Positions 3,477-16,064 of a stretch of 16,064 bases of DNA are shown piece after piece (position 1 is the first letter of the stretch; each line of letters begins with the position of its first letter). The notes beneath the pieces are model-generated. The model was not told the origin of the DNA. It did no database searches and was given only the letters and a program-made list of their open reading frames with translations. The DNA is from Vulcanimicrobiales bacterium. Its GTDB lineage: Bacteria; Vulcanimicrobiota; Vulcanimicrobiia; Vulcanimicrobiales; Vulcanimicrobiaceae. The stretch is taken from contig JBBRLI010000039.1 of NCBI GenBank assembly GCA_038231455.1, positions 1 to 16,064 of the forward strand, given 5' to 3'. Both the position numbers and the translations under genes were made by a program.

Positions 3477-4897
3477 GCGCGCGTCTCCGCGTCGAGTTGC
3501 GCATTCATCTCGCGGAACACTGCGCGGTCGTCGACCACGCGGCGGGCTTTGAAATCCGTGCGCGGTAGTGAACCTCGCGCGACGATCTCCGCTTTGGTTC
3601 GCAGTCCGAGCAGTGTATGGATGCGTCGTGCCGCATCCAGTCGGAACTGCTCGGTCGCCGCGGCATCATCGAGACTGCTCTCGATGCGCAGCAGTAGCTC
3701 ATCCATCGCCGCATCGCGGGTAATGACGATCTGGTGTTCGCCGCCGTAGCCGGGTGTTTCATTAAGCGCAGCGTCGATCTCACTTGGGTACACGTTCTCG
3801 CCGCGAATCGTGAACATGTCATCGATGCGTCCGAAGATGCCCTGCGGGAGCCGCGGATAGGTTCGCCCACACGGATTCGCTTCATTCACCCACAGCGTCA
3901 AATCGCCGGATGCAAGCCGGATCATCGGCTGTGAGGTTCGTTCCAGGTGCGTGTAGACCGGGGTCCCGCGCTGACCGTACGGGACGCGCCGCATCGTTTT
4001 CGGATCGCACACTTCGGTGTAGACGACGTCTTGCCAGCAGAGCATCCCATCCGTCTCGGCGGAACCGGCGACGTTCATCCAAGGCGACATCTCGGCCATC
4101 GAACCCGAATCGAAAACTTTCGCACCGTAGAGTTCTTCGATCCGATCGCGCACGCCGGGGATCGACGCACCGGGTTCGCCCGAGAAGAACATGATTCGTA
4201 AGCCGAAGTCGCGCGGGTTCAGACCTTCGGCAAGCGCCGTCTCGGCGAGGTGAATCGCGAACGTCGGTGTGCCGTAAAAGGCGGTGGGTTTCAGCGCGTG
4301 TAGCCACTGCGCACAGCGCGCCGTCATCCCCGGCGCACCCGCGCCGAACGGAAAGGCTTGCGCGCCGAGGCGTTCCGCCCCGGCGAGCGCACCCCAACTA
4401 CCCATGTACAGGCTCAAAATCGCCGCGATGCAGATCATGTCGCCGGGACGCATCCCCATCGCGTACATGATTCGCGCGTGGGCGTTTGCAATCGCGTTCC
4501 AGTCATTTCGGCCGATCGCAAACGCCGTCGGCCGGCCCGTCGTCCCGCTCGTGCCGTGAATGTGATGGATTTCGCGTACGGGGACGCAGAGGTAATCACC
4601 GAACGGCGGAGTCGTTGCTTGCGATTCGCGCAGATCTTTTTTGCTGAGGACCGGGACCTTATTCTCGAAGTCTTCGAGCGTGTGCAGATGATCCGGATGA
4701 AAGCCGGCCTCATCCCATTTGCGTCGATAGAATCCCGACTCGGCATACGCATAACGACACACGGCTTGCAGGCGTGCGAGGATCGCGCGCTCGCGCAACT
4801 CCGGATCCATCGTCTCGCGATCCGGAAACCAATAGCGGCTGCCGTCGGGCGGAAAATACGCGTCGTCGTACGCGGACGGGTACGACCAGTATTCCAT
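3473..4897 (-). CDS. hcl: 2-hydroxyisobutyrate-CoA ligase (phenylacetate-CoA ligase-like ANL enzyme), 474 aa
   Basis: GTSGTTGRP loop, SGEP, GD, GRIDDM..IRGENVYP, FKARRVVD. Numbered from ATG 4897 (MEYWSYP), SL-Y-MG is Tyr164 and FF-S-GEP is Ser239, matching the HCL specificity residues as I recall them. Sits between hcmB and meaH. Alternative start GTG 4921. Confidence 0.87.
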   Translation of the reverse strand: MEYWSYPSAYDDAYFPPDGSRYWFPDRETMDPELRERAILARLQAVCRYAYAESGFYRRKWDEAGFHPDHLHTLEDFENKVPVLSKKDLRESQATTPPFGDYLCVPVREIHHIHGTSGTTGRPTAFAIGRNDWNAIANAHARIMYAMGMRPGDMICIAAILSLYMGSWGALAGAERLGAQAFPFGAGAPGMTARCAQWLHALKPTAFYGTPTFAIHLAETALAEGLNPRDFGLRIMFFSGEPGASIPGVRDRIEELYGAKVFDSGSMAEMSPWMNVAGSAETDGMLCWQDVVYTEVCDPKTMRRVPYGQRGTPVYTHLERTSQPMIRLASGDLTLWVNEANPCGRTYPRLPQGIFGRIDDMFTIRGENVYPSEIDAALNETPGYGGEHQIVITRDAAMDELLLRIESSLDDAAATEQFRLDAARRIHTLLGLRTKAEIVARGSLPRTDFKARRVVDDRAVFREMNAQLDAETRA

Positions 4898-4907
4898 CTC
4901 GTCCGCC

Positions 4908-5315
4908 TTAGCGCGCTCCACGTTCGTTCACCAGCCGCGTCAGCGTGGCAACGATGGCATCGGGCGGCGTATCTTGCAGCATCACCTCAGCGACGCCCAT
5001 TGCTTTGAGTGCGACGACGTCTTCATCCGGCATCACGCCGCCCGCGACGACGATCATATCGCGCACGCCTTTTTCATCGAGCAGTTTGAAGATTTTCGGG
5101 AAGACGGTGAGCTGAACGCCGGAGAGGAGACTCACACCGAGAATGTCGACATCCTCTTGCACGGCCGCGTTGACGACTTCTTCGGGCGTTCGGTGAAGTC
5201 CGGAGTAAATGACATCCATCCCGGCATCGCGCAGCGTGCGTGCGACGACCCGCACGCCGCGATCATGGCCGTCGAGACCGACTTTCGCCATCAGAACGCG
5301 AATGGGTTGGCTCAT
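4908..5315 (-). CDS. hcmB: 2-hydroxyisobutyryl-CoA mutase small (B12-binding) subunit, 135 aa
   Basis: KVGLDGHDRG (DxHxxG base-off/His-on motif), GVSLLSG, VAGG. Start reassigned to ATG 5315 with GGAGG upstream. Confidence 0.92.
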   Translation of the reverse strand: MSQPIRVLMAKVGLDGHDRGVRVVARTLRDAGMDVIYSGLHRTPEEVVNAAVQEDVDILGVSLLSGVQLTVFPKIFKLLDEKGVRDMIVVAGGVMPDEDVVALKAMGVAEVMLQDTPPDAIVATLTRLVNERGAR

Positions 5316-5382
5316 AACTACCTCCAGCGTCGTCGAACGACGTTGCCTGTACTTGGGCGTTAAAATCGGAGAATCTTTCGCA

Positions 5383-5604
5383 TTGAACGCCCCGCTCTCA
5401 CCGTGCGTCGGTATTTGTGAATTGGAGACGGACCAGGATCGGTGCCGCGGCTGCTTGCGAACCCTCGCCGAAGTCGCTGCTTGGTCGACGCTCTCTAATG
5501 CGGCAAAAATCACCATCTTGGCCGACCTCAAGCGACGGCCTCGAGGGCAAGCTGGCGCCGACGCGAATCTGTCGGCATCTTACTCCCCTCCGGAGGAATC
5601 ATGA
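5383..5604 (+). CDS. DUF1289 (YdhL-like, predicted Fe-S) small protein
   Basis: SPCVGIC...CRGCLRT..E...W signature. Probable TTG start at 5383 after GGAGA; ATGA overlap with the next gene. Confidence 0.82.
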   Translation: MNAPLSPCVGICELETDQDRCRGCLRTLAEVAAWSTLSNAAKITILADLKRRPRGQAGADANLSASYSPPEES

Positions 5605-5798
5605 AGCGCTTACTTTCGCTCGTCATGGCCGCGGCGTTCGCCGCCTCGCTTGGAACCGTCGCACTCGCCGGCACGATGAATAGCGATTCCACGACATCGT
5701 CCGCATCGATGCGGATGGCTTGCCCCAAAGGCAAAACGTACGTCAAAGGTTATAAGAAAAAAGACGGGACCAAAGTCAAAGGCTACTGCAAGAGCTAA
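5601..5798 (+). CDS. Small secreted Lys-rich protein (65 aa) with a C-terminal Cys-bracketed VKGY repeat
   Basis: Strong RBS GGAGGA. Sec signal peptide MKRLLSLVMAAAFAASLGTVALA. Mature part ends CPKGKTYVKGYKKKDGTKVKGYCKS. Confidence 0.85.
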   Translation: MKRLLSLVMAAAFAASLGTVALAGTMNSDSTTSSASMRMACPKGKTYVKGYKKKDGTKVKGYCKS

Positions 5799-5818
5799 GG
5801 GACGTCCACGTGACAATT

Positions 5819-5849
5819 GAAACGGCGCTGTTGCTGACGGCGCCGTTTC
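5819..5849 (+). terminator. Stem-loop, probable terminator or stabiliser after the small secreted protein gene
   Basis: GAAACGGCGCTGT-TGCTG-ACGGCGCCGTTTC: 13-bp stem with one G-U pair, short U tract. Confidence 0.55.
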
Positions 5850-5883
5850 TGCATGTACGACCTCGTAGAGAAGACGGCTAATT

Positions 5884-6684
5884 TTGCGCGGGATCGATTT
5901 GTACGAAGGCGCGGGCGACGTCGATTGGACGGCGCTTGCGGATGTTGGATTCGCAATCATCAAGGCGACGGAAGGCGCGACGATTCGCGATGCCCGGTTT
6001 GCCAGACACTGGCCGGCAATGCGAAAAGCCGGTATCATCCGGGGCGCGTATCACTTTTTTTATGCTGCGTCATCGACGCCGCAACTACAAGCGGAGTCGT
6101 TTCTTGCTACGGTTGGGCCGCTGGTCGAGCGCGATCTTCCCCCGGTGCTTGATATCGAAGAAGCTTCGCTGCAAGGCGTTGCGCCCGCGTCGGTCATCGC
6201 GAGCGCGCAGACGTGGCTGGATCTGATCGAACGTCGCCTTCGCACACCGCAAGGCAAACCGCTGCGCCCGATCCTCTATACGAATGCCGATACCTGGGAT
6301 CGATTGGGAAACCCAAGCGACTTTACGGATTACCCGCTGTGGATCGCAAGCCCGGGTGAGGGCGATCCGGATGTCCCGGTTCCCTTTGGCCGCAGCGACT
6401 GGCTCATCCGACAAACGGCGTTCGATCAAACGCATGTGGGCGTACCCGGACGCGTTGATTTGGACATTGCCAATGCATTCGCGCGCGGCTCCAACGGAGC
6501 GCGCGTGCGCGATATCCAGCAGCGCCTCAAATCGTTGCTCGCCGAATCGACTGATCCCGGTACGATCGACGGCGCGTTCGGTCCGAAAACCGAGTCCGCC
6601 GTTCGCGCCTTCCAACGAACTCGTCGGTTGACGATCGATGGGATCGTGGGATTGAAGACTTGGGTCGAACTAATCTGGTCGTAG
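5884..6684 (+). CDS. GH25 muramidase (lysozyme M1-like) with C-terminal peptidoglycan-binding domain
   Basis: GID..., FAIIKATEG, GAYHFF, catalytic VLDIEE (DxE), ILYT, YPLWIA, GRVDLD. C-terminal 'RGSNGARVRDIQQRL...IDGAFGPKTESAVRAFQ...IDGIVGLKTW' is PG_binding_1. Confidence 0.92.
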   Translation: MRGIDLYEGAGDVDWTALADVGFAIIKATEGATIRDARFARHWPAMRKAGIIRGAYHFFYAASSTPQLQAESFLATVGPLVERDLPPVLDIEEASLQGVAPASVIASAQTWLDLIERRLRTPQGKPLRPILYTNADTWDRLGNPSDFTDYPLWIASPGEGDPDVPVPFGRSDWLIRQTAFDQTHVGVPGRVDLDIANAFARGSNGARVRDIQQRLKSLLAESTDPGTIDGAFGPKTESAVRAFQRTRRLTIDGIVGLKTWVELIWS

Positions 6685-6689
6685 AGAAC

Positions 6690-6725
6690 AAAAAAAGCCG
6701 CACATTGACGTGCGGCTTTTTTTTT
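6690..6725. terminator. Bidirectional intrinsic terminator between the GH25 gene and typA
   Basis: A7-GCCGCAC-ATTGAC-GTGCGGC-T9 between convergent genes. Confidence 0.92.
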
Positions 6726-6737
6726 GTCGCTATCGAG

Positions 6738-8570
6738 TTAGGCGAGAACTTTATCGCCGCGTTTACGCTGCCGTAGACGATCGGTTTCGTTGAGCATGCG
6801 CTTGCGAATGCGAATCGACTTCGGCGTGATCTCGACGAGTTCGTCGTCTTCGATGAATTCGATCGCGCGTTCGAGCGACATCTCTTCGGGCGGCGAAACT
6901 TTGGTCGAGTCATCCGAGCCCGAGGCGCGCATGTTCGTGAGTTTCTTTGCCTTGACGACGTTGATCGCGATGTCTTTATCGTCGTTGGTGCGGCCGACGA
7001 CCATGCCTTCATAGACGTCGATCTGCGGGCCGACGAAGAAGCGACCGCGCGATTCGAGGCCGACCATGGCGTACTCGGTCGTGACGCCGGTTTCGCTTGC
7101 GACAAGAGCGCCGACGCTGCGGCCGGGGATGTCGCCGGCGAGCGGCTGGTGATCGTGATACGTATGCGACATGACGGCCGTACCGCGCGAGAGCGTGAGC
7201 AACTCGCCGCGCAGACCGAAGATGGCGCGGGTGGGCATCGTGTATTCCAGGCGGCGCGTTTCACCGACTTGGAACATGTTGGACATCATCGCGCGGCGAC
7301 GGCCGAGCGACTCGATCACCGCGCCCGAATATTCTTCTTGCACGTCGATGACGACGTACTCGACCGGTTCCATCTTCACGCCTTCGCGTTCGGTGATGAT
7401 GACCTGCGGTTTGGAAACGCCGATTTCGAAGCCTTCGCGACGCATCGTTTCGATCAGGATCGAGAGATGCAGTTCGCCGCGGCCGCGTACTTCGAAGGTG
7501 TCGGCGGATTCGGTATCTTCGACACGCAGCGCGACGTTCGATTCGAGTTCGCGCATGAGGCGATCGCGGATCTGACGCGAGGTGAGGAACTTGCCTTCTT
7601 TACCGGCGAACGGCGAGTTATTGACCATGAAGAACATGGCGACGGTCGGTTCGTCGACAGCGACGGCGGTGATGCCCTCGGGAATGTCGGCCGAGGCGAT
7701 CGTATCGCCGATGTTGAGCCCTTCGATGCCCGAGACGCAGATGATGTCGCCCGCGGAGGCTTCCTCGATCTCGATGCGTTCCAGACCCGCGAATGCGAGA
7801 ATCTTCGTCAGGCGCAGACCCGTTTCGATCGCACCGCCGTCGTGAGCGATCTTGGCGATCGCCGAGTTCACTTTCATCGAACCCCGGAAAACGCGGCCGA
7901 TGCCGATGCGGCCCACATATTTATTGTGGTCGATCGCGGAGACGAGCATCTGGAAACCGCCATCCTCGGCGGGTGCCTCGGGGACATGTTTGACAATCGT
8001 CTCGAAAAGCGGTTCGAGATTTTCGCCGGCATCCTCGAGCTTATACTGCGCGATTCCCGCGCGGCCGTTCGTATACACGACCGGGAAATCGGCTTGTTCG
8101 TCGGAGGCACCGAGTTCGATGAAGAGGTCGAAGACTTCGTTGACGACTTCTTCGGCGCGTGCATCTTTGCGATCGATCTTATTGACGACCACAATCGAGT
8201 GGAGATCGAGCTCGAGCGCTTTACGGAGTACGAAGCGCGTCTGCGGCATGACACCTTCGGCGGCATCGACCAGCAGCACCACGCCCTGCACCATCTGCAG
8301 AACGCGTTCGACCTCGCCGCCAAAGTCGGCGTGGCCCGGCGTATCGACGATATTAAATTTCACGTCGCCATGCTTCACCGCGGTATTTTTTGCCAAGATC
8401 GTAATTCCGCGCTCTTTTTCGAGGGGATTACTATCCATCATGCGGGTCTCGGTGGCCGCGCCTTCGCGGAAAACACCGGATTGCTTGAGCATCGCGTCGA
8501 CGAGGGTTGTCTTGCCGTGGTCAACGTGCGCGATGATAGCAACGTTACGGATATCGCTTCGAGTTCTCAC
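6738..8570 (-). CDS. typA: Translational GTPase TypA/BipA
   Basis: [76 protein letters not shown]. Confidence 0.98.
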
Positions 8571-8578
8571 AAGGCTTC

Positions 8579-8587
8579 AGTATATCA
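8579..8587 (-). promoter_or_regulatory. Extended -10 promoter (TGATATACT) for typA, near-leaderless
   Basis: Minus strand reads TG-A-TATACT-GAAGCCTT-GTG: -10 hexamer 8 nt before the start codon, no Shine-Dalgarno. Confidence 0.6.
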
Positions 8588-8595
8588 CGAAAAGC

Positions 8596-9327
8596 CTATT
8601 TGCCGAAACGCCTCTGTCGGTGTGAGTAGGCGACGAGGGCTTCCTCGAAGATCGAGCGACTGAAATCGGGCCAAGGTGTCGGGGTTGCCCACAGTTCGGC
8701 GTAGGCCGATTGATAGAGAAGAAAGTTCGATAGGCGCAGTTCTCCCCCGGTCCGGATGATCAGATCGGGGTCGGGCAGGCCGCCGGTCGTGAGGCGGGCG
8801 GCGATCGCGGCTTCGTCGATTGCCGCTGGCTCGAGAACTCCGGAGGCGACATCGCGGGCAAGCGAGCGGACGGCGTCGGCCATCTCGCGGCGCGCGCTAT
8901 AGTCAATTGCGATGTTCAAAACCAGGCCGGGCGCCGCGGCCGTCGCCGTTTCCAGGTGGGCGAGCGCCAGGCGTGTTCCCTCGGGCAGACGGTCGAGTCG
9001 GCCGATGATCCGAACGCGGATCCCGGCTTCCTTGAGGGACGTTTCCTCACGGCGAGCCATGCGGGCGACCAAGGCCAGGAGCGGTCCGACTTCCGATTGG
9101 CCGCGCCCCCAGTTCTCCTCGGAAAACGCGAAGATCGTGAGCACGTCGATGCCATGCGCGATGGCGGCTGCGATCGTTTGCTGCAGTGCGCGAACGCCGC
9201 GCCGGTGACCCTCGAGTGCGTCCAGACCCTGCGCGTATGCCCAGCGCCGGTTCCCATCCATGATAATCGCGACGTGTTTTGGGATCGTGAGTTGCGCCGC
9301 GGCCGGGCGTGGTGAACGGACGATCAT
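8596..9327 (-). CDS. uppS: cis-prenyltransferase (undecaprenyl/polyprenyl diphosphate synthase), probably an accessory paralog
   Basis: HVAIIMDGNRRWA, GH, FAFSEENWGR, PDPDLIIRTGGELRLSNFLLYQSAYAE, RRFG. Start reassigned to ATG 9327 (ATGA overlap with the regulator stop). Confidence 0.92.
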   Translation of the reverse strand: MIVRSPRPAAAQLTIPKHVAIIMDGNRRWAYAQGLDALEGHRRGVRALQQTIAAAIAHGIDVLTIFAFSEENWGRGQSEVGPLLALVARMARREETSLKEAGIRVRIIGRLDRLPEGTRLALAHLETATAAAPGLVLNIAIDYSARREMADAVRSLARDVASGVLEPAAIDEAAIAARLTTGGLPDPDLIIRTGGELRLSNFLLYQSAYAELWATPTPWPDFSRSIFEEALVAYSHRQRRFGK

Positions 9328-9683
9328 GATTGGGTCGCCAAGCGTGCGCCGCTGGGTGCCGCGGCCTGCGTCTGCACGGCGCGCACGACGGATTCGAGCT
9401 CGTCGATATAGGCAAGAAAGCGCGTTCGGCCGTCCTCCGTAATACGCACGATCGTCGTCGGGCGGCCGTTGCCGCGCACGCGTTCGAGCGTGACGATCCC
9501 AACCTCGGCGAGTGCGTGCAAGTGACGGTTCAAATTGCCGTCGGTGAGCGCGCATGCGTCCTGAAGTTCGGTGAAGCGCATGCCCTCGGTGTTGGCGATC
9601 AGACAGGTGCACACCGCAAGGCGTCCGCGTTCGTGAAAGATTCGTTCCAGGCCGGCGTACGCAAAGTCACCGTTTTTATTCAT
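9324..9683 (-). CDS. Winged-helix transcriptional regulator (HTH_34 / MarR-ArsR-like)
   Basis: LERIFHERGRL..., FTELQDACALTDGNLNRHLHALAEVG, T.VRITEDGRTRFLAY..ELE. ATG 9683 with RBS GAGGAG. Confidence 0.88.
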   Translation of the reverse strand: MNKNGDFAYAGLERIFHERGRLAVCTCLIANTEGMRFTELQDACALTDGNLNRHLHALAEVGIVTLERVRGNGRPTTIVRITEDGRTRFLAYIDELESVVRAVQTQAAAPSGARLATQS

Positions 9684-10284
9684 GATTCTCCTCGCGGTCG
9701 CGCAACACAAGCGCACCGATTGCAATTTGTCCCGCACCGAAAACGAATGACATCACGTACCATGCGAGGGGGTCCACGACGTCGGAAATAAAGAGCAAGG
9801 CGCTCGCGCAACCGAATCCAAACGCGATCCAGACCGCACCGCGCGGCAGCTTCGCTCGCGACGCGAACAAGCCAATGGCGTATGCGCCGCACCAAAGTCC
9901 CGGTAAAAGCGCAAATTCGCTGTGCTGAACGAGCGCAAGCGTCGCGACACCGCCAAGGAGAATCGCCGGCAGAATCGTCATGCCGACGCTGCGAATCTCA
10001 CTCCGGCTCTTCGAGCTCCAGTTACGCGCAAGCCACACGCCAATCGCACCGTAGTTGATGAGAAGCGCAAACACAAGACACGAAATCCAGATCGCAAGAT
10101 AACGCCGATCCTCGAGCGTTCCGTGTGGCGTCGGCAGCATGACGGCTTGGTAGGCGCCGCTTCCGAAGGCGACGATGCCGCTTGCGATGGCTGCGACGCC
10201 GGAAATCCCGCGAAAACGCTGCGCCGCGGCCAGACGCGTGCGCACTTCGGCAAGGTCCGCCATCGCGCGATTGACTTCCATCAT
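9676..10284 (-). CDS. Multi-pass membrane protein of unknown function
   Basis: About six hydrophobic segments after an amphipathic N-terminus (A..DL.EVR..L). Overlaps the regulator start by 8 nt. Confidence 0.82.
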   Translation of the reverse strand: MMEVNRAMADLAEVRTRLAAAQRFRGISGVAAIASGIVAFGSGAYQAVMLPTPHGTLEDRRYLAIWISCLVFALLINYGAIGVWLARNWSSKSRSEIRSVGMTILPAILLGGVATLALVQHSEFALLPGLWCGAYAIGLFASRAKLPRGAVWIAFGFGCASALLFISDVVDPLAWYVMSFVFGAGQIAIGALVLRDREENHE

Positions 10285-10292
10285 GCTGATCT

Positions 10293-10323
10293 ACTTTGTA
10301 ACACAGAGTTAGGGCGTACGCAA
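10293..10323 (-). promoter_or_regulatory. Sigma70-like promoter with overlapping palindromic operator
   Basis: Minus strand TTGCGT(10323-10318)-17 nt-TACAAA(10300-10295) with TG extension. The imperfect palindrome ACTTTG-N5-CAGAGT (10293-10309) overlaps the -10 and spacer. Confidence 0.6.
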
Positions 10324-10382
10324 GGACGATCCGCCACTTTCCTTCGAGGCGTGCCTCCCGGCTCGTCCGAACAACGGCCGTC

Positions 10383-12005
10383 GTGTTCGAGCGCCTTCCC
10401 GAGTGGACGTTCCCCTTGCGCGCATGGCAGCGCGAAGCGAGTACGGACTGGCTCGACCGGCGACCGGACGATGCCTTGATTGTTGCCACGCCCGGTGCCG
10501 GCAAAACAAAATTTGCCGCGCGCATCGTGCACGCGCTGCTGCGCGATCGCTCGATCGAGCGCGCGATCGTCGTCGTTCCACGCGAGCATCTCAAATCGCA
10601 GGTCGCAATCGCCCTGGCTGAATGCGGCGTTCGCGTCGATCACAAATTCGCAAACGCGACGGGCACGCTGGCAAATGACGTTCACGGAGCAGTGGTCAGC
10701 TACCAACAAGTTGCATTTGCCCCGCACGTGTATCGTTCGATGAGCCGTAAGCCGACGCTCGTCGTGCTCGATGAGATTCATCACGCGGCCGATGCCGCAA
10801 CGTGGGGCAACGCGCTCCGCACGGCATTTGGTAGCGCGCAGCATCGGATCGCGCTCTCGGGGACGCCGTTCCGCTCCGATGGTTTGCCGATTCCGTTCGT
10901 GCAGTACGAAGCGGGCGTCTCGCTTGCCGATTATGGATACGACTATGCCGAGGCACTGCGCGACGGCGTTTGTCGGCCGCTCGTTTTTCCGCTGCACGGC
11001 GGCGTCGCCGAATGGATTAGTCGCGATGGGCGCACGATGCTTGCCTCGTTCGAGACGGCGCTCGAGTCGCGCGCAATCGAAGGCGAGCGGTTGCGCACCG
11101 CGCTCACGCAGGAGTCGTGGATCGGCGATGTTTTGATGAAAGCCCATACGCGACTCCTCGAACTCCGGGCCGAAGGCGATCGCGATTGCGCGGGTCTGGT
11201 CGTCGCGATGAATCAAGAGCACGCGCGTTTCATCGCCTCGCTCATGAAGCGGCGCCTCGGCATCGAACCGACGCTCGTCGTCTCAGAAGACGAACGCGCC
11301 TCGCTCAAAATCAAGACGTTCGGTCGCAGCCGCGACCCGTGGATCGTGGCCGTGCACATGGTGTCCGAAGGCGTTGATATCCCGCGTTTGCGCGTCGGGG
11401 TCTACGCGAGCAACGTCAACACCGAGATGTATTTCCGCCAGTTTTGCGGGCGTTTCGTGCGCACGCAGAAAGCGGTCGCGGGCGAGTCGGCCTACGTTTA
11501 TCTGCCCGACGATCCGGCTCTGGGGGCACTCGCGAGCCGCATCGCCGTCGACGTTCGTACGGCGCTGCGCTTCAAACGCGAGTTCGACGAGCTGGGCGCT
11601 GCGCAGCGCACGCTAACCGAGCCAAGCGACGCGCTTGGTGAGTACGCTTCGATTTCCGCATCGGCGACCGAGTCGCGCACGCTCGATTTTGGGCCACTAT
11701 TCGACCGCGAACGCTGGTTACGCGCGGAGCCACCGATCGGCGAGTCGACCAAAGTCGCCGTGCCATTCGAAAACAGGTCGCATCATGAAACCATTGGAGA
11801 TACCAAGGACTCGCTGCGCAAAACCGTAGCCGTTCTCGTTTCGCGCGTAAGCGACAAATTCAACGTCGACTATAAGAAGGTGCACGCGACATTGAACACA
11901 CGCTTTGGCGGACCGATCGGTACGGCGACGGTGGACGGACTCGCTGCGCGTGCCAAGACCGCGCAGCGCTGGCTTGCAAATAATGTGTATGACGGCTTGC
12001 GTTAG
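10383..12005 (+). CDS. SF2 DEAD/DEAH-box helicase (ResIII-like N-terminal domain plus helicase C domain)
   Basis: LRAWQ (Q motif), TPGAGKT (Walker A), LDEIHH (Walker B), LSGTPFRSD (motif III), MVSEGVDIPRL (motif V), QFCGRFVR (motif VI). Confidence 0.92.
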   Translation: MFERLPEWTFPLRAWQREASTDWLDRRPDDALIVATPGAGKTKFAARIVHALLRDRSIERAIVVVPREHLKSQVAIALAECGVRVDHKFANATGTLANDVHGAVVSYQQVAFAPHVYRSMSRKPTLVVLDEIHHAADAATWGNALRTAFGSAQHRIALSGTPFRSDGLPIPFVQYEAGVSLADYGYDYAEALRDGVCRPLVFPLHGGVAEWISRDGRTMLASFETALESRAIEGERLRTALTQESWIGDVLMKAHTRLLELRAEGDRDCAGLVVAMNQEHARFIASLMKRRLGIEPTLVVSEDERASLKIKTFGRSRDPWIVAVHMVSEGVDIPRLRVGVYASNVNTEMYFRQFCGRFVRTQKAVAGESAYVYLPDDPALGALASRIAVDVRTALRFKREFDELGAAQRTLTEPSDALGEYASISASATESRTLDFGPLFDRERWLRAEPPIGESTKVAVPFENRSHHETIGDTKDSLRKTVAVLVSRVSDKFNVDYKKVHATLNTRFGGPIGTATVDGLAARAKTAQRWLANNVYDGLR

Positions 12006-12007
12006 GC

Positions 12008-12036
12008 TTGACGAACGTTAATACAAACCTTAAACT
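12008..12036 (+). promoter_or_regulatory. Sigma70-like promoter of the Rrf2 gene, near-leaderless
   Basis: TTGACG(12008-12013)-17 nt-TAAACT(12031-12036), 8 nt before GTG 12045, no Shine-Dalgarno. Confidence 0.7.
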
Positions 12037-12044
12037 TTCTAATC

Positions 12045-12464
12045 GTGGCTAACAGTCGTTTCGCGCTAGCGGTTCATGCGCTCGCGTATCTTGCTCATCA
12101 TGACCCCAAACCGACAACCTCGGAGGCGGTCGCAAAGTCGATCAACACGAATCCCGTCGTGGTACGCCGACTTTTCGCTCAGCTGAACACCGCTGGTCTC
12201 ATTGCGACGCAGCCCGGTGTCGGCGGCGGCGCGACGCTCACGCGCTCGCCGAAGAAGATTTCGCTCGGCAGCGTTTACGCGGCGGTGTCGGAAACGCCGG
12301 CGATCGCTTTGCATCGTAACCGTACCAACCAGCGTTGCCCCGTCGGCAAGAACATGACGGGCATTCTCGGTGGTGTCTCGGAGACGGTCGACTCGGCAAT
12401 CGAAAAGAGTCTTGCGCGCACGTCGGTCGCCGACGTGTTGACGAAGACCCTTTCAAAGAACTAG
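12045..12464 (+). CDS. Rrf2-family transcriptional regulator (YwnA-like, single Cys)
   Basis: SRFALAVHAL, TSE.VA.SINTNPVVVRR, G.GGG..L.RSP..ISL..VY, CPVG. Lacks the three-Cys IscR/NsrR Fe-S ligand set. Confidence 0.92.
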   Translation: MANSRFALAVHALAYLAHHDPKPTTSEAVAKSINTNPVVVRRLFAQLNTAGLIATQPGVGGGATLTRSPKKISLGSVYAAVSETPAIALHRNRTNQRCPVGKNMTGILGGVSETVDSAIEKSLARTSVADVLTKTLSKN

Positions 12465-12769
12465 GTCGCGTTTCGGTCCGGCACCTCGAGTGTGCCGGTG
12501 AGAACCTGATAGACCATAACGAAATCGGCAGCAAACGAGAGAACCGGCTGTTCGAACGTCTTGGGCTGATTTTTCTCGAACACCCAGTGCGAGACAAATG
12601 CCGGAAGATACCCGAGCGCGAGTCCGATGAGGACGCGTTTGGGTTTTCGCATTGCAATACCCGTGACCCCGACAGAGAGCCCGCTTAGCAGCCCAACGGT
12701 ATGGATCAGTCGGCTGCGCGGGTCGATGTGCGCTTGTAAGTACTCCGGGTAGAACGCGGCAAACGTCAC
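12461..12769 (-). CDS. DUF962 / Mpo1-like membrane protein
   Basis: F..FYP.YL..H.....R..H..G and GY..A..SHWVFEKNQP.TF..P..S...DF.M. Start reassigned to GTG 12769 (GGAG upstream). Confidence 0.87.
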   Translation of the reverse strand: MTFAAFYPEYLQAHIDPRSRLIHTVGLLSGLSVGVTGIAMRKPKRVLIGLALGYLPAFVSHWVFEKNQPKTFEQPVLSFAADFVMVYQVLTGTLEVPDRNAT

Positions 12770-12831
12770 GGCTATTGCTCCAGCTCGAGGGCTTGAGATG
12801 AGCTTAAGCACGGGCAAGCGAATTCCGTGCT

Positions 12832-14259
12832 ATGGGGTCTGGTAATCGACTCGCTGGGTTGATCGTGCGCTTTACGATCACCCTGGTTTTCTTTGCTGCC
12901 ACTACGGTCGAACTGATTCATATGGCCGGGCTGCCGCTTGGCTACGGATTCATTCCTACGAGCTCGCCGCGCGGCTTTGTGCTTCTGCTGGCCACGCTCT
13001 GGTGGTTTTTCGCCGCGTTTCTCGGCGGCGCTCTCACCCAGATCGCGGCTGTGCTGGCCGTTCGTTTGGTTGCCGGTCACCGCCGCGCAGCGTTTTCGTT
13101 TTTCGCCGACACCCTCTCGCTTGTGTTCTTCGTGGTCGCAACGGTCGCGACGGCATCGTACGTGTTCGAACTCCCCGTTTCGACCGTCTTTGCGACCTCG
13201 AGCATCGTTGCGGTCGTTCTCGGCTTCGCGCTACAGAGTACGCTCGGCGATGTATTCGGCGGCATCGCGCTTGCAGTCGAACGTCCGTTTCAAATTGGCG
13301 ACTGGATTACGATCGATGAGAAGTTTACCGGACGGGTCGTCGAGATCACGTGGCGCACGACGCGACTGAGTACCAAGACGAAGGATACGATCGTCTTTCC
13401 GAACTCTGCCGTCGGACGCTCGCGATTGATCAATCACTATCTTCCCTCTCCGCTGCACCGCGTTGCAATTCTGGTTAGCGTTTCGAATCTCGAATCGCCG
13501 GTGCGTGTGACGGAAGTCCTCACCGCCGCAGTTCTGAGCGCCGAGGGCGTCGTCGATATACCGCCGCCCTCGGTCGACGTGCGCGACATGACCGAAAAGT
13601 CTCTCGTGTATAAAGTAAAATTTCACGTTGCGGCATTCGAAGATCGCAACGGCGTAATGAGCGATGTCTACAAGCAGATCTGGCTCCATCTCTCCTGGGC
13701 CGGGCTGGCAAAACCCCTCACGCGCCAGATCATCGAACACATGCCGGTCGCGCCCGAGGTCACCGAGGTCGAACGCATCGCATCGCTGCTTGCGCGCGTC
13801 CCCGTTTTCGCACCCCTCGGCGACGAAGAACGGAAGCAACTCGCGCAAGCACTCAAGCCGCGTCGGATCGGCGCGCAGGAAACGCTCCTCGCGCAATTCG
13901 ACGAAGGGCGCTCGCTCTTCATCGTGCGCGAGGGAATACTCGATGTGAGTGTACGCACCGAAGACGGTGTTAAGAGCGTAGCGCGGCTCTATCCAGGCGA
14001 CTATGTCGGCGAGAATTCGCTCCTGACCGGAGCGCCGCGCAACGCGACGATTACGGCGCTCACGCCTTCCTCCGTGTACGAACTCGACAAAGACGATGTC
14101 AGTATGCTGCTCGAGGAGCGGCCTGAGATCGCCGAGGAATTCGGTCGCGTCCTCGCCTCGCGCGAGCAGTCACGCCTCGCGCTGCCAAATGGAGTCGCGG
14201 TCCCGGAGAGCGTTCTGGCACACTTCACGAACCAGATCGCAGCGTTCTTCCATCGCTAA
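12832..14259 (+). CDS. MscS-family channel fused to a C-terminal cyclic-nucleotide-binding domain (bCNG-like)
   Basis: N-terminal TM helices, GFALQSTLGDVFGGI...RPFQIGDWI..G.V.EITWRTTRL...PNS (MscS). C-terminal LFIVREG...GDYVGENSLLTGAPRNAT (phosphate-binding cassette). Confidence 0.93.
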   Translation: MGSGNRLAGLIVRFTITLVFFAATTVELIHMAGLPLGYGFIPTSSPRGFVLLLATLWWFFAAFLGGALTQIAAVLAVRLVAGHRRAAFSFFADTLSLVFFVVATVATASYVFELPVSTVFATSSIVAVVLGFALQSTLGDVFGGIALAVERPFQIGDWITIDEKFTGRVVEITWRTTRLSTKTKDTIVFPNSAVGRSRLINHYLPSPLHRVAILVSVSNLESPVRVTEVLTAAVLSAEGVVDIPPPSVDVRDMTEKSLVYKVKFHVAAFEDRNGVMSDVYKQIWLHLSWAGLAKPLTRQIIEHMPVAPEVTEVERIASLLARVPVFAPLGDEERKQLAQALKPRRIGAQETLLAQFDEGRSLFIVREGILDVSVRTEDGVKSVARLYPGDYVGENSLLTGAPRNATITALTPSSVYELDKDDVSMLLEERPEIAEEFGRVLASREQSRLALPNGVAVPESVLAHFTNQIAAFFHR

Positions 14260-14302
14260 TTGCCGAGGACGCGCGAACGGGTTCGACAAACCACACGCAG
14301 AT

Positions 14303-14340
14303 GGGAGAGTACGGATCTGGTGGTCCGCACGGTCTTCAAA
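14303..14340 (+). pseudogene. selC: tRNA-Sec (selC) 5' half, truncated right after the anticodon loop
   Basis: GGGAGAG-TA-CGGATC-TGGT-GGTCCG-C-ACGGT-CTTCAAA: Sec-specific 6-bp D stem with 4-nt YGGT loop, and anticodon TCA (14336-14338) in the loop CTTCAAA. I found no variable arm, T arm or CTCTCCC acceptor strand downstream in the window. Confidence 0.85.
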
Positions 14341-14364
14341 TGCGTTTCAACCGTAAATCGCACG

Positions 14365-14479
14365 TGTTCGCAGAAGTTCGCAGACGCCCGCAGGATCAAT
14401 ATCCGCGGGCGTTTCCTTGTCGATTCGATGTTCGCGGTTGTTCGCCAGTGCGCGCAGAAGACGTGACCAAGAAGTGACC
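14365..14479 (+). repeat. Helically phased direct repeats (candidate att-arm sites)
   Basis: GTTCGCAGA at 14366 and 14376; TGTTCGC at 14429 and 14439 (degenerate third copy at 14449); GTGACC at 14463 and 14474. Confidence 0.7.
14384..14418 (+). terminator. Terminator-like hairpin downstream of the selC fragment
   Basis: ACGCCCGC-A-GGAT-CAAT-ATCC-GCGGGCGT followed by TTCCTT. Confidence 0.55.
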
Positions 14480-14558
14480 TGGAGACGGCCTCAGCCAAAT
14501 GGGCTCCGGCTGAGCAGCGAGGGCGGGAGCTTTCTGCGAGCTGCGTAAGACCTCGAAA

Positions 14559-14990
14559 ATGCGGACCCTTGCTCGGCTTCGGTTAGCAATCGTCGTCGTA
14601 GCTGCCGGGGCGACGATCTATTGGGCATGGAGTGATCTCGGACGCCTTCCCTCGCATGCAGTTTACAGCACAATGACCGGCTTAGCGCGAGCCACAGCGG
14701 ACCGAAACGTATGGGGATGTGTTAACGCTGATCCGTTTGATCCGCTCGACCCGTGCAATCGTCGCTTGGCGAACGCGTCCCCTGAGGCAGATTCGGCGGC
14801 CTACGCTCTGCACCGCGCCGCCTACGATTCGCAAGCAGCGGCCGAGAACGAACGCCGGCGATCTGTAGCTGTGTCTTCGTCGTTGAGAGACCTCGGCAGG
14901 ATCGCACGCAAACTCGTTCTCATCGGCGCGATCGCCGGCGCACTTTGCGTCTTGGCGCCGCTTGCCGCACGCGGGATCACGAACACGTGA
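14559..14990 (+). CDS. Hypothetical two-TM membrane protein
   Basis: Hydrophobic segments near both termini; internal CVNADPFDPLDPC; GTGA overlap with the next ORF. Confidence 0.6.
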   Translation: MRTLARLRLAIVVVAAGATIYWAWSDLGRLPSHAVYSTMTGLARATADRNVWGCVNADPFDPLDPCNRRLANASPEADSAAYALHRAAYDSQAAAENERRRSVAVSSSLRDLGRIARKLVLIGAIAGALCVLAPLAARGITNT

Positions 14991-15292
14991 GAAGCTTTCG
15001 ATCGTCGATCGCACTCGTTTTGGTATTAACGGCAACCGGAGTCGGCTGCGCGCGCGCTTCGCAGAAACCGCAGTCCTGGTTTGTTGAACGGACGGTGAGT
15101 TACACGACAACCGGAACCTCCGGGATGCAAGAACCGCAGCAAGACGTCACAACGATCGCCGGTCCGTTCTCGCGTGAGAGCGAGTGCATCGCATCGCTCG
15201 AAGATCCGATCAGCGGTAAGCAGACCAGCGATGAGCTTTCGTGCGCTGAGAAAGACGTCGACTCGAAAGTCTATCCGCCGCGACCGCAATAG
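14987..15292 (+). CDS. Hypothetical exported protein (signal peptide or lipoprotein)
   Basis: Start reassigned to GTG 14987: MRSFRSSIALVLVLTATGVGC-ARA. Two further Cys. Stop directly precedes a terminator. Confidence 0.65.
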   Translation: MRSFRSSIALVLVLTATGVGCARASQKPQSWFVERTVSYTTTGTSGMQEPQQDVTTIAGPFSRESECIASLEDPISGKQTSDELSCAEKDVDSKVYPPRPQ

Positions 15293-15323
15293 AAAAAGCC
15301 CGCGACCACCGCGGGCTTGGTTT
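15293..15323. terminator. Intrinsic terminator between convergent island genes (stronger on minus strand)
   Basis: AAAAAGCCCGCG-ACCAC-CGCGGGCTTGGTTT. Confidence 0.8.
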
Positions 15324-15337
15324 GATCGGCGTTGCGA

Positions 15338-15460
15338 TCAGGATTTACCGCGCTTCTTGGGTTTGCGTTTGGCCGATGGCGCTGTCGACGTTCTAACGAC
15401 GAACAACTCGTAAGCGAGATCCAAGAACCGACGCGCAGCGGGACTGTCGGGGACGATCAT
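15338..15460 (-). CDS. Hypothetical 40-aa protein with a basic tail
   Basis: ATG 15460 with AAAGG upstream, 10 nt after the stop of the preceding gene: MIVPDSPAARRFLDLAYELFVVRTSTAPSAKRKPKKRGKS. Ends just before the terminator. Confidence 0.5.
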   Translation of the reverse strand: MIVPDSPAARRFLDLAYELFVVRTSTAPSAKRKPKKRGKS

Positions 15461-15470
15461 GCGGTGCCTT

Positions 15471-15812
15471 TCACGGTGTCGACGAGAAGCCGGCAAGCCA
15501 CGCGCGAGTACGCGCGACCTCGGCATTGATCGAGCTTGCGACGTCGCCGAGCGGATTACTCGCGATCGCGACCGCGATCCGCACGCCTAGCTCGAAGCCC
15601 GATCCGAACGCCGTATGCGCATCGAAGCGCTGCTCGCCATGGCTAGCGATGCCAACGATGCGCGCCGCCGCGTTTCCCGGAGCATCTTCGCACCACGCGG
15701 CGGGTTGCTCTTCGCCGTACTTGCGTGCGAGGTAAAGCGAGCAGAGCAGTTCAAGCGCCGCGACATCGATCGAGGTCGGCTGCGTGGTGGTCGTCGAAGG
15801 TGAGTTAGTCAT
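15471..15812 (-). CDS. Hypothetical protein, 113 aa
   Basis: Start reassigned to ATG 15812 (MTNSPSTTTT), with GAAAGGG upstream and a promoter and leader hairpin further upstream. Confidence 0.6.
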   Translation of the reverse strand: MTNSPSTTTTQPTSIDVAALELLCSLYLARKYGEEQPAAWCEDAPGNAAARIVGIASHGEQRFDAHTAFGSGFELGVRIAVAIASNPLGDVASSINAEVARTRAWLAGFSSTP

Positions 15813-15836
15813 CGATTGTAGCCCTTTCGGTGGCCG

Positions 15837-15912
15837 GGCTCGGGGTGTTAGTAGCACCGCCGAGCCGCTGTGTATGCGACGCATCTTAGCGCGACGATCG
15901 GCGCGTTGTAAA
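15837..15912 (-). promoter_or_regulatory. Promoter plus structured 5' leader of the island's leftward operon
   Basis: TTTACA(15912-15907)-18 nt-TAAGAT(15888-15883), then the hairpin GGCTCGG-C-GGTG-CTACTAA-CACC-CCGAGCC (15866-15837). Confidence 0.55.
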
Positions 15913-16064
15913 GCGTTTCGCGAAAGATTGCGAGCGATGCAAAAACGTAAACAAATCAGCTCTTTACGCCATTCGGCAAGCCAGTAGCCTACGCATCGCC
16001 GCGACCGCTGATCTGATCCGGACGCATGCACTCCGACTCGGCATGACCGCGGTCACGGGACACG

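Follow-up and report, generated by a model that had tools for sequence, protein, structure and literature searches.

A displaced 5' half of selC as the very probable left border of an integrative element that regenerates tRNA-Sec at its far end

The window analysed here, a stretch of 16,064 nt that is the whole of contig C39 in a MAG of 106 contigs (G000; 3.71 Mb, estimated 93.7% complete), contains the 5' half of a tRNA-Sec gene (selC). This fragment is very probably the left attachment site (attL) of a site-specific integrative element of approximately 12.8 kb, which lies in the anticodon loop of selC in reversed orientation, brings its own copy of the selC 5' half and regenerates a complete selC at its far end. 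The original prediction had described the split tRNA gene as 'not repaired', which is true of the junction in the window only, since an intact selC stands at the far junction on contig C33. What had been suspected to be a switch of the selenoproteome becomes an ordinary, if uncommon, island border.

The fragment (GGGAGAG...GGTCTTCAAA; in full, GGGAGAGTACGGATCTGGTGGTCCGCACGGTCTTCAAA) matches the start of the intact tRNA-Sec gene at C33:338-431 exactly, and with the AT that precedes it the block of identity reaches 40 nt (window 14301-14340, 40/40 against the C33 copy). An exact identity over 38 nt cannot be chance. Right after CTTCAAA the copies part, the window reading TGCGTTTCAA and the intact gene ACCGCTGAGG; these seven bases are assigned to the anticodon loop because ARAGORN places the anticodon at tRNA positions 34-36. 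A selC 5' half ending at CTTCAAA with non-tRNA sequence beyond it had been predicted and is borne out by the exact copy and by the divergence after 14340, as is a crossover within the anticodon loop, where identity between the copies stops; within the span first proposed (14303..14354), positions 14303-14340 are tRNA and 14341-14354 are not. The expectation that tRNA scanners would miss such a fragment was also correct. ARAGORN reports no tRNA gene in the window, Rfam has no match there at gathering thresholds, and in a permissive Rfam scan tRNA-Sec scores just 17.6 bits against a cut-off of 47. A match to ctRNA_pGA1 at 14529-14628 (15.4 bits, cut-off 45) was taken as chance. For annotation, this means that a 5' tRNA half missed by scanners may mark an element's left end, with the integrase and the regenerated tRNA situated kilobases off, often on another contig of the MAG. 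The features of the window are collected in Table 1.

Table 1. Features at the selC junction and its flanks (positions in the window)
Feature	Position	Strand	Evidence
Native left-flank gene, MscS-type channel with cyclic-nucleotide-binding domain, 475 aa	12832..14259	+	Pfam MS_channel_2nd 3.8e-16, cNMP_binding 1.3e-19
Native selC upstream region, presumed orphaned native promoter	14242..14302	+	Resembles the sequence before selC in G001
Displaced selC 5' half, very probable attL (acceptor 5' strand, D arm, anticodon 5' stem and loop)	14303..14340	+	38/38 nt identical to C33:338-375
Anticodon loop CTTCAAA, end of identity block, putative 7-bp strand-exchange region	14334..14340	+	Identity with attR stops here in G000
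Element P' arm, with conserved blocks and repeated sites	14341..14480	+	Blocks shared with the G041 element, which has different cargo
Left end of element variant A	14341..16064		Reaches the contig end; variant B is the C42 reverse complement
Two GTTCGC-N4-GTTCGC pairs, candidate protein-binding sites	14366..14381 and 14430..14445	+	The only 2 matches in the window
GTGACC-N5-GTGACC, candidate arm-type integrase site	14463..14479	+	Single match in the window
ORF of 143 aa in the variant A-specific segment, co-directional with the presumed orphaned selC promoter; no family	14559..14990	+	Pfam, NCBIfam, PADLOC

The intact gene was identified by ARAGORN as tRNA-SeC with anticodon TCA, and by the Rfam tRNA-Sec model at C33:338-427 with 71.6 bits (cut-off 47), the sole match above the cut-off in the genome, with 10 others below it. 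The window fragment lies upstream of it on the same strand, and the two form an exact direct repeat of 40 nt. Just before the intact gene, and again on the same strand, C33:2-220 encodes the C-terminus of a tyrosine recombinase (stop at 218-220), in which the catalytic motifs HSLRHT...LGHSTVSITMDLYSH can be read directly (HSLRHT...GH...Y). The N-terminal 386 residues are encoded on contig C42 and match Pfam Phage_integrase (1.9e-27), an N-terminal SAM-like domain and a PHROG integrase (4.7e-65). Read through the overlap of the two contigs, the integrase has an open frame of 442 codons, counted from stop to stop; it is co-directional with selC and terminates 118 nt short of it. A nearby integrase had been anticipated, together with a complementary 3' half that might be preceded by a 5' half; the tyrosine integrase adjoins selC on C33, and the gene that follows it is complete.

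Contigs C39, C42 and C33 are joined by exact k-mer overlaps alone, in a MAG. The reverse complement of C42 (12,926 nt) begins with 131 nt identical to window 14237-14367, which take in the last part of the native flank gene, the region upstream of selC, the 5' half itself and the next 27 nt, and it ends with 141 nt identical to C33:1-141. These overlaps point to the order native flank, displaced 5' half (attL), element of approximately 12.8 kb, integrase, regenerated selC (attR) and native flank.

An uninterrupted site is present in G001, a genome of the same genus, as the original prediction had proposed to look for among relatives. On a single G001 contig, sequence colinear with window 3608-12637 is followed by an intact selC and then by sequence corresponding to C33 1061-7517, so that the gene stands between both flanks. 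The sequence that leads into the G001 gene shares 86.9% identity over 99 nt with window 14242-14340, and the 60 nt or so before that gene match the window side and not the integrase side; the sequence upstream of the intact C33 selC is unrelated to that upstream of the fragment. The window therefore retains the native upstream region, and the intact gene of G000 has a 5' half and upstream sequence derived from the element. Within the 475-aa flank gene, window 13561-13791 alone matches G001, where a mere piece of the MscS/cNMP gene remains before selC (L040 9393-9623). G001 also has approximately 2.7 kb after selC (L040 9841-12554) without a counterpart in C33 435-1061, and no integrase-sized frame was seen in it.

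The sequences beside the crossover have the character of attachment-site arms. At least two matches to GTTCGC-N4-GTTCGC occur in none of 200 shuffles, and one copy of this motif is found in the attL arm of G041, a genome with a related element. GTGACC-N5-GTGACC, likewise matched in 0 of 200 shuffles of the window, recurs on the integrase-proximal arm (C33:243-259) and on both G041 arms, and starts 123 nt past the crossover in G000 and G041 alike. Alignments of the two genomes reveal further shared blocks in both arms, despite different cargo. The pattern is that of a lambda-type integrase with arm sites, and the motifs would be bound by protein.

Two variants of the element occupy the site in this sample, and for this reason the contigs break here. 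The window (variant A) and the C42 reverse complement (variant B) are identical over 14237-14367 and diverge thereafter; the variants are 96.7% identical over their first 243 nt, and window 15064-15869 is 90.5% identical to C42rc 397-1202. The roughly 580 nt at window 14480-15063, which hold the ORF at 14559-14990, are absent from variant B, with about 150 nt in their place. This ORF has a weak, sub-cut-off match to TPR_5 in Pfam and none in NCBIfam or PADLOC. Compared over window 14368-16064 and L009 (C42) 11725-12795, these are two variants of 90-97% identity at the same site in one sample. Since both join the same native flank, they are alternatives present in different cells, and a tandem array of A and B was rejected on the same ground. 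The right end of variant A is absent from the G000 assembly. Logan contigs of the single run containing the stretch include both variants and stop inside the 38-40-nt repeat; their depths (flank about 12, variant A 3-4, variant B 5) are unusable as shares of cells.

Most frames of the element remain unnamed by PADLOC, NCBIfam, Pfam and PHROGs. One encodes a Toprim/AAA_25 primase-helicase-like protein (Pfam AAA_25, 2e-28; PHROG primase/helicase, 1.5e-27), which is present in the G041 element at 27% identity. No capsid, terminase, relaxase or transfer genes were recognised in the element, and it is therefore called a small integrative element with a replication module. Base composition offers no contrast (GC 0.62 in the element, 0.61 in the genome). 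On the minus strand of C42 (L009 10126-11496), a DUF4326 protein has as its neighbour a homologue (2.2e-50) of PDC-M19B, a candidate defence protein in PADLOC.

These observations are very probably explained by a mechanism in which a tyrosine integrase inserted the element into the selC anticodon loop in reversed orientation, with an attP carrying a copy of the selC 5' half in place of the usual 3' half. By analogy with characterised anticodon-loop integrases, strand exchange would take place in the 7-nt loop. The native 5' half and the native upstream region are left stranded at the left border, in the window, and at the right border the 5' half of the element and the native 3' half make up a complete selC, 118 nt downstream of int. 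The native upstream region then lies approximately 12.8 kb from the regenerated gene, and transcription of selC would therefore have to begin in element DNA, with int transcripts that run on into selC or at a promoter within the P arm of 118 nt. No promoter of sigma-70-like consensus and no terminator was found in C33:1-600, between int and selC, and no consensus promoter or terminator before the window fragment. Hence the suggestion that the element supplies a new 5' half and promoter and so takes control of selC stands for the 5' half and the upstream sequences, given the junctions and G001, and not for the promoter, of which no sigma-70-like example was found. The spacing in a more distant genome, G030, where 22 nt separate int from selC, favours co-transcription.

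All the machinery for which the original prediction proposed a search is present, selA and selB on contig C28 and selD at G000:C7:149899-150819; the latter has one in-frame TGA and is probably itself a selenoprotein. With selA, selB and a TGA-containing selD, the cell needs tRNA-Sec, and the tRNA would remain functional in the carrier. In carriers, the RNA required by their selD would be transcribed from element DNA.

The same architecture is found in other genomes. In G041 an integrase 78% identical to that of G000 is co-directional with selC and lies 117 nt before it, an exact 38-nt 5' half stands 9.3 kb upstream on the same 386-kb contig, and the upstream junction likewise departs right after CTTCAAA. 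G030, from another family of the class, has exact 39-nt copies 64.2 kb apart on one contig and an integrase of 36% identity directly before the intact gene. The 38-mer was searched as a pattern, with at most 3 mismatches, in 301 genomes of the class, unpublished genomes included in all tallies; it matched 112, every one in the family of the window, with at least 2 matches in 13. In eight of the 112 the 5' half is repeated on one contig and strand, at a distance of 1.7-25.5 kb (one of these, G203, is unpublished). In all seven of G041, G048, G073, G104, G119, G159 and G193, the upstream copy is a fragment and the downstream copy an intact tRNA-SeC. Identity between the copies extends to the final loop base in G000 and G041, and stops 0-4 nt further on in the seven others examined, G030 among them. 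An integrase-like frame lies directly 5' of the intact gene in G041, G104 (a 197-aa piece), G119 and G073 (in two pieces), and near the left end instead in G159; none was found between the copies in G048 or G193. The unpublished G042 (L076) contributes a further int-selC pair, with an integrase of 49% identity.

Several of these loci have features of their own. In the unpublished G203, contig C57 carries the 5' half three times on one strand, at spacings of 6.3 and 7.1 kb, and looks like two tandem elements. The 30 nt before the displaced fragment of G073 (L143/L144) resemble the 30 nt before its intact gene, which suggests either a further element upstream, in a tandem array, or a repeat that exceeds the tRNA half. 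G119 (L146) and G048 (L142) have an additional integrase-like frame that points towards selC from its 3' side, and selC may be used from both sides in this family. The arms of G159 (L147) and G193 (L148) are alike and differ from those of G000 and G041, with no integrase adjoining selC, suggesting a second att type, and perhaps a second type of recombinase, at the same selC loop.

Three other accounts of the half-gene deserve consideration. The same architecture could be a fossil border, the element being no longer able to excise and the half-gene an inert scar, and this is the decayed relic among the options first raised. Several sister elements do show signs of decay: the copies of G048 are just 1.7 kb apart with no integrase in between, the integrase of G073 is in two pieces, G104 has the 197-aa open piece alone, and the best open integrase frame in the unpublished G042 is 158 aa long. 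For G000 itself we consider this quite unlikely, because its integrase is open over the whole frame with its C-terminal catalytic motifs, the repeat is exact at 40 of 40 positions, both arms retain motifs shared with an element of different cargo, and two variants of 90-97% identity at one site in one sample suggest recent activity.

A selenoprotein switch controlled by excision, with selC inactive while the element is integrated and restored when it leaves, agrees with the failure to reconstitute a tRNA at the window junction, and there are known tRNA targets that go unreconstructed, namely those of tRNA-dependent lysogeny in mycobacteriophages (PMC10865867). It is nevertheless refuted. A full tRNA-Sec, recognised by both ARAGORN and Rfam, is present at attR, and such a copy at the far junction had been named in advance as what would refute the switch; a complete selC occurs at the other junction in G000 and likewise in each of the 8 further genomes examined, and selD, given its in-frame TGA, needs Sec decoding. 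Finally, the half-gene might be an artefact of assembly or binning, a chimeric join or the DNA of another organism. The genome is a MAG of many contigs in which this site forms a bubble with two variants, and selC contigs of other organisms also fall on the 5' half (loose ends, agreement 0.64-0.65). That explanation is scarcely credible given that the junction of flank, 5' half and element arm is found in two contigs of the MAG and in the Logan contigs of the run, and that the identical architecture lies elsewhere on single contigs of 386 kb, 597 kb and 3.9 Mb.

The relatives of the integrase were compared by gene order. Forty-six loci were submitted together with G000; five had no match at E 1e-10, and 42 were scored. 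A tRNA lies just downstream and co-directional (5'-type order) at 7 of the 42, convergent (the usual 3'-type order) at 10 and just upstream at 6, and no adjacent tRNA was scored at 19. In a quick maximum-likelihood tree, for which 12 loci were set aside and the 30 with 300 or more aligned residues kept, the integrase of the window element falls in a clade of 11 rows (SH-aLRT 100) with five co-directional, four convergent and two unassigned. A displaced fragment confirms the gene-order label of only four loci: G000, G041 and G030 for the 5' type and the tRNA-Val locus of G034 for the 3' type. This last locus, in the same clade, has a displaced 3' fragment that starts at the anticodon loop and is the exact mirror case. 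No displaced 5' fragment was found for the co-directional tRNA-Lys of G034 in a genome-wide pattern search, or for the co-directional tRNA-Thr of G032 in the stretch around the locus; both pairs belong to this clade. Both orientations thus occur in one integrase clade, which fits a symmetric anticodon stem-loop that is usable either way.

A broader proposition for the family is possible but rather doubtful. The selC anticodon loop would be a recurrent site for several att types, each bringing a selC 5' half; carriers would obtain tRNA-Sec from mobile-element sequences alone, either co-transcribed with int or driven by an arm promoter, so tying selenoprotein synthesis to transcription of the integrase region; and the orphaned native promoter would be captured to drive co-directional genes at the left end. 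What recurs within one bacterial family is, in any case, a 5'-side mode of integration that is rarely reported.

In the selC islands of Enterobacteria, integration occurs at the 3' end of the gene and the island follows downstream. There too selC is the target of integrase-bearing islands, but the element described here is not of that 3'-end type: it leaves a 5' half as the fragment and sits on the upstream side of the intact gene. Zhao and Williams reportedly described, in 2002, a bacterial integrative element with reversed orientation of the target gene, in which the 5' part of a tRNA gene was replaced and not the 3' part. By that description the present element likewise replaces the 5' part of a tRNA gene, and differs in phylum, in the tRNA concerned (selC), in its boundary at the anticodon loop and in its recurrence within a family.

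The pTN3-like integrases of Thermococcales (Cossu et al. 2017, as cited in PMC8371274) use the 5' half of a tRNA gene as attB and restore an uninterrupted tRNA; according to PMC8371274, the integrase adjoins the recombinant tRNA, which is expressed from the integrase promoter, and the arrangement is 'seldomly encountered in bacteria'. Those are archaeal plasmids and viruses with another type of integrase, whereas the present element is bacterial and has lambda-like arm repeats, and expression from its integrase promoter is a conjecture. The anticodon-loop class of tRNA-targeting tyrosine integrases (Williams 2002, as summarised in PMC8371274) is defined by a 7-nt loop, a symmetric stem and a regenerated tRNA. 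The element described here resembles that class in its tyrosine integrase, in an identity block bounded by the 7-nt loop and in the regeneration of the tRNA, and is the mirror image of its classical members: its block extends from the gene's 5' end as far as the loop, the 5' half is what is displaced and lies upstream, and the original promoter would be unusable. In tRNA-dependent lysogeny of mycobacteriophages (Guerrero-Bustamante & Hatfull 2024, PMC10865867) the tRNA target is not reconstructed and the phage brings a separate, complete tRNA gene. A tyrosine integrase splits a tRNA gene and leaves one junction with no functional tRNA in both systems, but the far junction regenerates selC here and, by that account, neither junction does so there. 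The Islander filter accepts 5' fragments upstream of a tDNA, the configuration found here; the tycheposon preprint has no passage on 5' halves, and no paper on 5'-side integration at selC was among the matches listed in the literature search, which is not proof of absence. Integration on the 5' side of tRNA genes is rare but already published, and what is new here is the target, selC, the phylum (nearest relatives Vulcanimicrobiota) and the recurrence within a family.
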